Origin: a virus
Length of the DNA stretch: 64,000 bases
Reading direction: 5' to 3' (one strand)
Virus record (IMG/VR): IMGVR_UViG_3300029305_003176
Made by a program: the position numbers and the translations under genes. Positions 2,676 through 31,560 of the stretch are shown piece by piece. Numbering within the stretch: the first letter of the stretch is position 1; each line of letters starts with the position of its first letter. The notes beneath the pieces are model-generated. The model was not told where the DNA came from. It saw nothing but the letters and a program-made list of their open reading frames with translations, and did not search any database.

Positions 2676-3859
2676 TATTCAGCCACCTCCAATTCAATAG
2701 AAGAGTGGTATTCTCCGGCAGAATTGCTAACCGATAAAACAAATTTCTTTCCTTTAAGACTAGAGGCCTTAGCAGGTTTAACAGCAAGAGTAGAAGAGTC
2801 GAATTTGGTTAACTTCATTAAACCAATATAATATTCTTTTTCTTCATCTGTTAATGTTCCGTCTGCTGGAGTAATTCTCCATTGAGGGTATATACCGCTA
2901 TCAGAAAATTCAACTTCATAATAATAGGTTTGCCCTATCTGTAATGTAGTTTCTATTCCTTGTTCAAGCTCTCCGTTTTCGTTAACAATCATCCATTTAA
3001 TTTCAGAAGTTTTTGTTATATCTGGTGTTTCGTTTATTGGTTCGCTTATAGTAATATCTCCCTCATCTGTGTAATAATCACATATATGAAGTTCTGTATT
3101 ATCTCGTTTTTCATTTAGTTCATCTTGCTTAATTGAAAGCTTGATAATGCCTTGTGAATTAAGGTCGGTAATTTTTGTTACCTGATAAATTTTTGGATCT
3201 ATATCATTATTGCTAAAGAAAAATCTCTGTAGATGCATAATAGTTCTAGTGTCACACATACCTAATTCTTCAAGTTTGTCACCGTATACGTGAAACGTAT
3301 CTGGTAACCATGAACTTGTAAGATTATCTCCAGACTGACTCAGCTCGTCACGCCAAATGCCGGAAGTATAGGATTGCGCCGACTTGCTACAAGCCCAACA
3401 ACTCATTAATTTGCCTTTATAAATCCACTTGAAGTCCCAATCACATTTAAGTATCATATATCTAACATAAGCATTTGCTTCGTCTCGACCTACAATAATC
3501 CACCATTGAGTTCTGTTCTCTATCGGTTGTGTAAAAGGATTTGCCTTTTCTTCTTCTGATAAGTTAATATCAAAATCAGTATCATCCGGAACAATAACAT
3601 AACTACCAACTGGATAGTGCACCTTTGGTCTAAACTGTAAATAATAGTCTACAGCGTCTTTTGAGATAGAAGGAGCAGAGTGAAACTGATATTTTGCATC
3701 TTCCCATTTCCAACCTTCTTTTGTTAGAATATAAACCTTTTTATATGTAGGGTCTAATGTAAATGTGTTATTCATAATCACATCAGATTGAGTTCTTTTA
3801 ACTTGACCGAGAGTGTTACCACGAGACAACAAATAGTTTTTATAAGAGGTCATATTCAT
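2675..3859 (-). CDS. Putative head-closure/neck protein
   Basis: Start adjusted to ATG 3859 after GGAGG; position in head-tail module. Confidence 0.5.
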   Translation of the reverse strand: MNMTSYKNYLLSRGNTLGQVKRTQSDVIMNNTFTLDPTYKKVYILTKEGWKWEDAKYQFHSAPSISKDAVDYYLQFRPKVHYPVGSYVIVPDDTDFDINLSEEEKANPFTQPIENRTQWWIIVGRDEANAYVRYMILKCDWDFKWIYKGKLMSCWACSKSAQSYTSGIWRDELSQSGDNLTSSWLPDTFHVYGDKLEELGMCDTRTIMHLQRFFFSNNDIDPKIYQVTKITDLNSQGIIKLSIKQDELNEKRDNTELHICDYYTDEGDITISEPINETPDITKTSEIKWMIVNENGELEQGIETTLQIGQTYYYEVEFSDSGIYPQWRITPADGTLTDEEKEYYIGLMKLTKFDSSTLAVKPAKASSLKGKKFVLSVSNSAGEYHSSIELEVAE

Positions 3860-4671: not shown

Positions 4672-5271
4672 TTAGTATAAATTAGTTGTAATCAAGAAGT
4701 TTGTACCATAAAACTCATCAAGTGCTTTAATCTTCTTTACAGAATCTAAAGTACCATTGAGAACCATCTTGCCTACAATGTTCTTAAGATTGCTTTTAGA
4801 ACCATCAGGGAGCTTGCTAATTTTATTCATCATAGCATCAACCGGTAAAGCCAAAATCTCTTTAAGGTCTCTAGTTGAATACATAGAATCATAAATCTTT
4901 TGAACCTTTGGGAACTCTGCAAGAAAATCTTCATCCTCAATAATAAAATGAGGTGCAGTAACATAAGAAGTATTAGAACGCACAGAAGATACTAAATCTC
5001 TGTACTCAACACCTTGAACATCTCCATTATCAGACCACTTGTAATGATTATGTGACTGAATACCGGACATAACGAGTATACCGTCTACTATTGAACGGCA
5101 CATAACTTCTTCCATTGGTTCAAATTTCTTTTTCTCTTTTACAACTACCTTTTCAGTTACTACTGGTTCAACTGTCTCTACAGTTTCAACTGCTTCTTCA
5201 ATTACATCTACAATCTCTGTAACTTGTTCAGTCTTTGGGGTTGTAGTTTTCTTTGTCATTGTTTTTGCCAT
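4672..5271 (-). CDS. Hypothetical protein immediately after capsid gene
   Basis: 199 aa, low-complexity Glu/Val/Thr N-terminus; RBS AGGAGA. Confidence 0.6.
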   Translation of the reverse strand: MAKTMTKKTTTPKTEQVTEIVDVIEEAVETVETVEPVVTEKVVVKEKKKFEPMEEVMCRSIVDGILVMSGIQSHNHYKWSDNGDVQGVEYRDLVSSVRSNTSYVTAPHFIIEDEDFLAEFPKVQKIYDSMYSTRDLKEILALPVDAMMNKISKLPDGSKSNLKNIVGKMVLNGTLDSVKKIKALDEFYGTNFLITTNLY

Positions 5272-21167: not shown

Positions 21168-21208
21168 GACCCACCGTGGTACGCATTACTAAGAGGCGTG
21201 GTGGGTTC
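21168..21208 (-). ncRNA. Orphan structured RNA resembling the abiF RNA motif
   Basis: GAACCCACCACGCCUCUUAGUAAUGCGUACCACGGUGGGUC: 7-bp outer stem, 4-bp inner stem, ACCAC bulge; family assignment is from recollection. Confidence 0.5.
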
Positions 21209-30234: not shown

Positions 30235-30249
30235 AAAAATCAAGAGTGG

Positions 30250-31310
30250 ACAAATAAGACCACTCCTTACAAAGCAAAAGCTTTCAATTAAAGATTCAGA
30301 ACACCGTGCGCAACGCTGTCCCTATAGAACTAAAAGTTCTCAATGAATACGGGTGACGATAAGCTAATCCTGTCCGTGTTTTACCCCGTATTAATGTGTA
30401 GTCTCTGCAAAGAAAACACAAATCTAGGACTAAGGTTTTTTCAATAGGGAATTGCAGTTACCTATTGAAGCTATGTAAGTTGCCCACTTAAGGGTTCTTT
30501 TTATACGGCTCGTAAAGAGCAATGTTACAAGGCTCAACCCTTGCTTGCAGTTCTTAACTGCATTTTTTTAACATTCTACTTAAACGTGCCTTTTCACACA
30601 TCATTTGCATATGTTCTTTAGAATGTACAATATCAGTATTTTCGTTAAAAACCTGTTCTGATCTAGTAGCCCATCTCAGGTTAGAAATAGTATTATTATT
30701 TTTATTTCTGTCAATATGATCTACAGTAGGCTTGTTTTCTGGATTTTCTATGAAAGTTTCAGCAATAATCCTATGCAACAATAAAGTTTCCACACGATAA
30801 CTGTCATTACTCAATTTTACTTGATAATAGCCATCTTTTCTTTTTCTTGGACTTAAAAATTTATTTGATATATAACTCCAAATTCGCCCATCCTCGGTTG
30901 CCGCATAACGACCTTCATATCCTTTAATATCCTTCATTTGTTCTCCTTTAAATACAATATCATTTATATAGGAGTGTTCCGTAAAACACCCCTATAATTA
31001 ATTGTAGTCTCAATCCTACATGTAGAAAGTTCCTTTCTATGTTCCCCAGCTTCTCAGTACCAGGTGGTGGACGCATATGTACGCCACTGAAATTTATTCA
31101 GACCGCTATAGAGCAGTAGCGATAGAGTTTTTGATTGGCTTCTCACAAACCAGCTATTTTAACACTCAGTTTATTAATCGGATAGAGTTATTAACCGATG
31201 CTCTTTGTCTGACTTTAATTAAATTCGGTAGATATTATAAACGCCGAATTATATAAGAGCCGTCTTTAGCTATGCATAAGACAGATTCCTTTTCTACACA
31301 TGGTAGATAG
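30250..31310 (-). ncRNA. Candidate large structured RNA (~650 nt) interrupted by an HNH ORF; ends approximate
   Basis: Long-range pairings 31257-31263/30505-30511, 31199-31206/30514-30521 and 31009-31018/30425-30434; many local hairpins; no ORFs in the flanks. Confidence 0.6.
30554..30937 (-). CDS. NUMOD4/HNH homing endonuclease
   Basis: KDIKGYEGRY...GRIWS; LHRIIAETFI.NP...VDHIDRNKNNN...NLRW. Confidence 0.9.
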   Translation of the reverse strand: MKDIKGYEGRYAATEDGRIWSYISNKFLSPRKRKDGYYQVKLSNDSYRVETLLLHRIIAETFIENPENKPTVDHIDRNKNNNTISNLRWATRSEQVFNENTDIVHSKEHMQMMCEKARLSRMLKKCS

Positions 31311-31317
31311 GTTATTT

Positions 31318-31422
31318 ACTATTGAATGATATTATACATTTCAGTCCCGTCATTCTCGGAGACTATACATAACTAACTATCGAGTAATATTCTACATTTA
31401 AATCCCGTTACTCTCGGAGATT
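31318..31422 (-). repeat. Two tandem 47-nt H-type pseudoknot repeats (58-nt period)
   Basis: Copies 31376-31422 and 31318-31364, with compensatory changes in both stems. Confidence 0.85.
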
Positions 31423-31484
31423 AAATAAACGAAAATGTCATAATGACAAAATCTCAGCTCAATCCACACAAGGACGGATGAGTA

Positions 31485-31560
31485 TTGCGGAGAGGTGGAT
31501 TTGAACCACCAACCTTTGCCTTATGAGGGCAACGAGCTAACCGAACTGCTCCATCCCGCT
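31485..31560 (-). tRNA. tRNA-Met(CAT), initiator-like body with irregular acceptor stem
   Basis: AGCGGGATGGAGCAGTTCGGTTAGCTCG; anticodon arm TTGCC-CTCATAA-GGCAA. Confidence 0.8.

Follow-up and report, generated by a model that had tools for sequence, protein, structure and literature searches.

Toxin-less phage relatives of a TenpN-like type III antitoxin RNA: candidate decoys against a host toxin

The stretch of phage DNA analysed here (64,000 nt, referred to below as the window) carries on its minus strand, at 31318-31422, two tandem RNA pseudoknots that belong, as judged by homology, to the tandem antitoxin repeat family of a TenpN-like type III toxin-antitoxin (abortive-infection) system of Firmicutes. 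We consider it likely, at a probability of roughly 0.7, that these units are toxin-less copies of the antitoxin RNA, transcribed by the phage to keep a host toxin inhibited. The element has the features of an antitoxin mimic, being phage-encoded, similar to a bacterial type III antitoxin and unaccompanied by a toxin gene. An earlier note, made from the letters of the DNA, had proposed type III antitoxin-like repeats without a toxin at this place, and the analysis bears this out: homologues of the units adjoin toxin genes, a covariance model of toxin-linked units (R1) scores the window units at about 69 bits, and a profile of the cognate toxins finds nothing in the window.

The window array and its RNA family

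Unit A (31376-31422) and unit B (31318-31364), both on the minus strand, are 47 nt each and are separated by an 11-nt linker (31365-31375, minus strand) that completes a 58-nt period and is collinear with the linker of the L059 and L071 arrays; the units differ at 9 of 47 positions, and the minus strand of 31318-31422 is identical to the letters quoted for the two 47-nt units in the earlier note. In the numbering of the unit, stem 1 pairs positions 1-4 and 6-8 with 22-16, with U5 bulged (AAUC-CCG/CGGGAUU in unit A, AGUC-CCG/CGGGACU in unit B), and stem 2 pairs positions 10-15 with 41-36 (GAGUAA/UUACUC in unit A, GAAUGA/UCAUUC in unit B), so that the stems cross to form an H-type pseudoknot with a loop 1 of one nucleotide and a long loop of 13 nt. 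All 13 pairs are intact in both units. From A to B one pair of stem 1 (2-21, A-U to G-C) and two pairs of stem 2 (12-39, G-C to A-U; 14-37, A-U to G-C) are exchanged; the three compensatory swaps from which an H-type pseudoknot had been proposed are real, and covariation among 51 units supports the fold. General-purpose searches pass over the element, as Rfam 15 has nothing that covers the window units either at gathering threshold or at E <= 10, and Tandem Repeats Finder at score 30 does not report the array. Folded singly by minimum free energy, the units have unremarkable z-scores, which is due to their being pseudoknots.

The first relative came from a permissive blastn search of the unit against cultured phages, which returned one short match, in Enterococcus phage vipetofem, whose unit has further compensatory changes. 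Degenerate patterns taken from conserved columns were used to scan IMG/VR and a collection of one genome per prokaryotic species. In IMG/VR an over-strict unit pattern gave no matches, and the other pattern scans gave 4 and then 14 stretches. In the prokaryotic collection the unit pattern identified 37 loci, against about one expected by chance (an estimate from pattern length and collection size), and these lie mostly in Lachnospiraceae and other Clostridia, plus Lactobacillales; Companilactobacillus, Tetragenococcus, Coprobacillus and Stoquefichus are also among the bacterial matches.

The 51 distinct homologous units form a gap-free alignment in which 97.7% of the cells pair, double changes occur in nine of the 13 pairs, and all six stem 2 pairs covary. 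None of 500 shuffled controls reaches the observed covariation values, and slid controls pair at 30-49%. Loop 1 is a single variable nucleotide throughout the family, the 13-nt second loop is A-rich and nearly invariant, and the homologous arrays contain one to three units at a period of 52-58 nt. The RNA family is uncatalogued and strongly covarying; the fold itself is not new, and a single-nucleotide loop 1 with a long A-rich loop is the architecture of both TenpI and CptI (PMC13682666).

The covariance model R1 was built from 36 toxin-linked units alone, with the window left out, and it finds unit A at 68.9 bits (E 2.8e-15) and unit B at 68.6 bits (E 3.3e-15), the next best match within the 64-kb window being at 10.5 bits. 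In L059, a toxin-linked locus of a Ruminococcus MAG whose toxin has 164 aa, unit 1 of the array is identical to unit A at 42 of 44 core positions, and a toxin-linked unit of L068 agrees with unit B at 41 of 44. Across both full units of L059 and the linker between them, the window array is moreover collinear. Because the L059 array is collinear and in the same order, the compensatory differences between A and B are best read as inherited from an ancestral two-unit antitoxin, and by this comparison the swaps did not arise in this phage; the array looks to have been captured from an L059-type locus without its promoter, half unit, terminator and toxin. It follows from the closeness of the window units to those of L059 that their intact pairing says little on selection in this phage. 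Each unit also departs from the toxin-linked ones at one position, unit A having a G at alignment column 45, where 36 of 36 toxin-linked units have an A, and unit B a U at column 34, where all 36 have a G. These changes could weaken toxin binding, and they are the main ground for caution on the full activity of the window units.

Toxin linkage in bacteria and on plasmids

The earlier note had asked whether bacterial homologues of the units stand beside toxin genes, and this check was run. In 29 of the 37 bacterial loci the units are linked to a homologous ORF of about 150 aa, which starts no more than about 150 nt from the last unit in 28 of the 37, and units also stand directly upstream of ToxN/CptN/TenpN-fold toxin genes on Enterococcus faecalis plasmids. 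In L051 (a Lachnospiraceae MAG; L051:349-2091) a 580-aa ORF is inserted between the antitoxin unit and the toxin, which is an N-terminal fragment 2.1 kb downstream of the unit. L081, L042, L059 and L071 have the textbook type III layout, in which a sigma-70 promoter precedes a truncated first unit and one to three full ones, and an intrinsic terminator separates these from the Shine-Dalgarno sequence and the toxin gene. A promoter, full units with a half unit, a terminator and the toxin gene (L091:1492-1968) are likewise readable on the E. faecalis plasmid pEK4S, one of eight E. faecalis conjugative plasmids with this layout, on which the toxin is annotated as hypothetical.

We note that the shortened unit of the toxin-antitoxin arrays retains stem 2, whereas its stem 1 is reduced and its second loop short; this unit comes first in the Clostridia loci (L081, L042, L059, L071) and stands in the middle on the E. 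faecalis plasmids (L091:1345-1387). Four bacterial contigs (L046, L054, L067, L077) have one to three units and no toxin within the fetched flank, as in Companilactobacillus, where a methyltransferase-like gene comes after three units; such toxin-less bacterial contigs may be prophage-borne or free-standing antidotes.

The toxin ORFs have in common the motif GRPCVLIV.LKYKG..HKFVVPLRSNI. Seven of eight full-length ORFs, together with the split ORF of L042, match the NCBIfam TenpIN model (NF047358) at 24-38 bits (E 4e-5 to 2e-9), below its curated cut-off of 90 bits, and the L078 toxin ORF has no match to that model at E <= 0.01; NCBIfam CptIN matches are weaker, with E about 4e-4. These toxins appear from their sequences to be TenpN relatives in a distinct clade, one that falls below the NCBI threshold for TenpIN membership. 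A PDB sequence search with the toxin gave no match, and a PDB profile search gave CptN alone (E 0.11). An AlphaFold model of the toxin has a pLDDT of 93.3, and its top five Foldseek matches in the PDB are ToxN 2XD0, CptN 4RMO, ToxN 7D8O, ToxN 4ATO and AbiQ 4GLK, with TM-scores of 0.67-0.72; the structure search settles the identity of the modelled toxin as a ToxN/CptN/AbiQ fold.

Among known systems the closest likeness is to TenpIN. As in TenpI, the units are non-identical tandem H-type pseudoknots longer than the repeats of ToxI or CptI, and the bacterial homologues have the TenpIN order of promoter, repeats, terminator and toxin (PMC13682666, PMC12283969, PMC3401426); the homologous toxins match the TenpIN model best and have an R-S motif (PLRSNI) at the place of the TenpN catalytic Arg55-Ser56. 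They differ from TenpIN in toxin scores far from the 90-bit cut-off, and the window element differs in having no toxin, promoter or terminator. CptI/CptN of Eubacterium rectale (PDB 4RMO, PMC4627078) comes from the same bacterial group, the Lachnospiraceae, and resembles the present system both in toxin fold (Foldseek TM 0.68) and in the topology of the RNA pseudoknot, whereas by sequence the link between the toxins is marginal (profile E 0.11; NCBIfam CptIN E about 4e-4) and CptI repeats are shorter than those of TenpI (PMC13682666).

None of these accompanying parts was found with the window array. A profile HMM of 23 cognate toxins gives nothing in a six-frame translation of the 64-kb window (best E = 1.1), with the control locus L042 detected at E = 6e-33, in agreement with the statement of the note that the window has no ToxN-like gene. 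A promoter and terminator scan around the array gave no convincing sigma-70 promoter and no assignable terminator, and the array has no half unit. In bacteria the family thus stands upstream of a ToxN-fold gene, between promoter and terminator, and the window array does not.

The tRNA cluster and toxin-less units in other phages

From its gene content the window (32% G+C) is assigned to a large SPbeta-like phage, of which it is a part, because it has a terminase, homing endonucleases and six tRNAs, and because sister contigs have YonJ/YonG neighbours. In the order of the minus strand, an HU-like gene (31895-31620) is followed by a tRNA-Met (31486-31559; ARAGORN and Rfam), which lies directly upstream of the array, and by a conserved leader of about 60 nt (31426-31485) between the tRNA-Met and unit A, with two small hairpins, the second of them followed by UUUU. 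After unit B come about 380 nt without an ORF (30938-31317), a non-coding stretch with no toxin remnant that lies outside the antitoxin-like element, and then an HNH/NUMOD4 endonuclease gene (30937-30554); beyond this gene there are about 320 nt without an ORF, tRNA-Glu, tRNA-Gly, tRNA-Asp and a PIN-PhoH gene. The units begin 64 nt after the tRNA-Met and share their strand with the tRNAs and genes on either side, an arrangement that makes co-transcription of the units with the tRNAs plausible. The leader and unit are 81% identical over 118 nt to positions 638-751 of L043, a contig of a related phage, in surrounding intergenic DNA that cannot be aligned; the leader pattern is found in L043 alone among the viral contigs, and two metagenome scans, one for the leader and one for the A/B junction, gave no matches.

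On the minus strand of the window from 30236 to 31317, long non-coding stretches with no Rfam match lie on either side of the HNH gene, and the part between unit B and that gene (30938-31317) has a minimum free energy of -92.3 kcal/mol (z = -2.87). The non-coding regions of the window and of L043 (L043:750-1247) have the motifs AAAAGAACCCTTAAGTGGGCAACT and TGCTCTTTAYGAGCCGTA in common, and that of L043 is uninterrupted by an HNH gene. The region may be a large structured RNA that the endonuclease gene has invaded and interrupts, with 30938-31317 as its 5' part. Three further contigs from independent samples (L093, L094, L095) do not differ from the window up to the end of unit B and all end at one base shortly beyond it (about 31289 in the window); this points to a mixture of strains or to a break in assembly where the large RNA has its 5' edge.

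An abiF RNA (RF03085, 42.5 bits) lies on the minus strand of the window at 21169-21205, flanked by the gene of the terminase large subunit and an ORF of 521 aa, and no Abi_2 gene was found beside it. Its homologue in L043 (L043:977-1013, 38.5 bits), inside a tRNA array, shows compensatory stem changes and is about 230 nt downstream of the TenpI-like unit of that contig.

Toxin-less units are present in at least eight phage lineages: the window, L043, L040, L084, L085, L087, the group of L086, L088 and L090, and four cultured Vipetofemvirus phages. L043, a relative of the window phage, shares the leader and has its single unit between tRNA-Asn and tRNA-Met; in L040, L084 and L085 the unit is followed by a terminator, and in L085 by a tRNA-Thr after it, so that the units of the window, L043 and L085 all lie in or beside tRNA genes. 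Nine orphan phage units pair at 98.3%, and stem 1 of L043 has compensatory changes. On individual contigs we also note that the orphan unit of L087 (2096-2150) is bracketed by a 13-nt inverted repeat (AAAGCCCGTAACG / CGTTACGGGCTTT), which could form a long stem around the unit and perhaps a processing site, and that the L040 contig has two group I introns recognised by Rfam (3514-3807, 87.8 bits; 4673-4978, 60 bits).

The Enterococcus phages permit a direct comparison with a host. Each of the four cultured Vipetofemvirus phages has one unit, which in vB_EfKM29 lies just after the annotated major head gene and in vipetofem about 40 nt upstream of a gene. Identity between the phage unit and the antitoxin units on the E. 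faecalis plasmids is 89-94%, and the two have a lineage-specific stem 1 (GAC/GUC) in common. One pair of stem 2 differs among them (plasmid U-A, vipetofem U.G, vB_EfKM29 C-G), a series which suggests that the fold is kept by selection within the phages. The Enterococcus phages would so seem to carry a variant of their host's system and to maintain its fold. With the L059 and pEK4S toxins as queries, no toxin homologue was found in any phage of the cultured collection.

Complete loci do occur on five viral contigs (L081-83, L089 and L042). In L042 (L042:7071-9655) a complete array stands with a toxin gene split into ORFs of 109 and 56 aa, beside a GmrSD-like (DUF262) gene, and this locus may be a defence islet in decay. 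Among 38 viral loci related to the window through PhoH (72-209 kb), none has a unit within 6 kb of the PhoH gene, from which we take the element to be accessory and not core.

A decoy antitoxin and its alternatives

At the bacterial loci the promoter drives an array of two to three units that differ in sequence, and beyond the terminator lies the gene for an endoribonuclease with the ToxN fold. If it acts as the toxins of ToxIN, CptIN and TenpIN do, this enzyme would cut the repeat transcript into single pseudoknots, each of which would bind and block one toxin molecule; non-identical repeats that are each functional alone have been reported (PMC13682666). The published ToxIN model, in the outline given by work cited in PMC12283969 and PMC10853763, has the phage shut off host transcription, the unstable antitoxin decay and the toxin become free. 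For the window phage we infer expression, processing, toxin binding and rescue of infection: most likely the phage transcribes its own two units together with the neighbouring tRNAs during infection, and these would top up the antitoxin pool once host transcription stops, so that the host toxin would stay inhibited and the phage escape abortive infection. The recurrence of toxin-less units in at least eight lineages, and the likeness between the unit of the Enterococcus phages and the plasmid antitoxin of E. faecalis, strengthen this proposal.

The main alternative to a decoy is a decaying remnant, in which an ancestral complete TenpN-like locus lost its toxin and the units drift without function. 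It would be in keeping with the complete loci on some viral contigs (L081-83, L089) and the split toxin gene of another (L042), with the unique change that each window unit has at an otherwise invariant position, and with the HNH endonuclease gene and non-coding DNA that fill the place expected of the toxin. We nevertheless regard it as unlikely, since the window has no half unit, promoter, terminator or remnant of a toxin, and all 13 pairs of both units are intact. The conservation in L043 points the same way, with leader and unit kept at tRNA-like levels between unalignable flanks and with compensatory changes in stem 1, as do the toxin-less units of at least eight unrelated phage lineages, whose contexts resemble those of small-RNA genes.

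Still less probable, in our view, is another role of the RNA, in which the units would belong as a domain to the large non-coding RNA next to them, help to process or stabilise the transcript of the tRNA cluster, or act as a cis-regulatory leader. Such roles are brought to mind by the place of the unit between a tRNA and a long structured non-coding stretch, both in the window and in L043, and by the closeness of the vipetofem unit to the gene downstream. The toxin-antitoxin loci and six other phage lineages have the unit without a large RNA, and with so many contexts of this kind the idea of a domain within the neighbouring large RNA, named earlier as a possible refutation, falls away; the genes downstream in phages are unrelated to each other, and the bacterial context of the family is overwhelmingly a toxin gene. 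A split system, with the units serving as antitoxin to a toxin encoded elsewhere in the phage genome, beyond the 64-kb window, is very improbable: the window is part of a genome whose PhoH relatives reach 72-209 kb and complete phage-borne loci exist, but in every complete locus found here no more than about 150 nt lie between the last unit and the start of the toxin, and for the Vipetofemvirus phages, whose records are complete, a toxin elsewhere is excluded as far as homology searches reach, with none in any phage of the cultured collection. A tandem riboswitch or an operator like that of T4 gene 32 was suggested by the leader-like copies of vipetofem and L040, with their terminator or AU-rich stretch, and was dropped, as the gene downstream is a toxin gene in bacteria and unrelated ones in phages.

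A phage that keeps the antidote alone is familiar among proteins, and T4 Dmd is a phage-borne orphan protein antitoxin with the same logic. In the DarG-like proteins of T4-like phages, too, the phage keeps the antidote half by itself, although as a protein and not as a non-coding RNA (PMC11257639). The nearest RNA precedent for the decoy that we propose is pseudo-ToxI of the Pectobacterium phage PhiTE, which suppresses ToxIN once its repeats are expanded; like the window units it is a phage-encoded, toxin-less, intergenic tandem copy of a pseudoknot antitoxin, and it closely resembles the repeats of the host system (PMC3475682). The two differ in family, ToxI/ToxN with 36-nt repeats in PhiTE against TenpI-like repeats of 52-58 nt here, and in completeness, as wild-type PhiTE has 1.5 repeats, from which no full pseudoknot is possible, and needed expansion in the laboratory (PMC3475682), whereas wild phages of many lineages have complete pseudoknot units here; function was demonstrated in PhiTE and would follow here by analogy. 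A full-text literature search for phage antitoxin mimics returned PhiTE and protein antitoxins alone, and no published phage mimic of TenpI type was found; a 2025 survey of TenpIN in bacteria and viruses covers toxin-containing loci alone, and the word 'orphan' is absent from its main text.

A broader proposal, which we hold tentatively and at somewhat less than even odds, is that the tRNA clusters and other highly transcribed gaps of large phages of gut Firmicutes serve as RNA anti-defence islands, in which toxin-less antitoxin RNAs of several families would jointly disarm several RNase-based abortive-infection systems, the units being captured from host loci and passed from phage to phage as small modules. 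In the present phages such an island may comprise TenpI-like units and abiF RNA, perhaps beside the larger structured RNA. The earlier note had imagined an arsenal of decoy RNA antitoxins in which the abiF-like hairpin took part, and this is supported in part, by the abiF RNA of the window without an Abi_2 gene and by that of L043 close to a unit.

RNA mimicry of a type III antitoxin has so far rested on one laboratory-evolved case, that of PhiTE. The evidence presented here points to a natural and widespread strategy: at least eight phage lineages have, with no toxin beside them, complete and well-folded units from another antitoxin family, the TenpN-like one, and the unit of the Enterococcus phages together with the conjugative-plasmid locus of their host species makes a directly testable phage-host pair. 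Two groups are delimited as well, an RNA family so far uncatalogued and strongly covarying, and a clade of TenpN-related toxins whose members, on E. faecalis plasmids as in many gut Clostridia, are presently annotated as hypothetical. Decoys of this type bear both on the host range of phages and on how defence systems are read from genomes.
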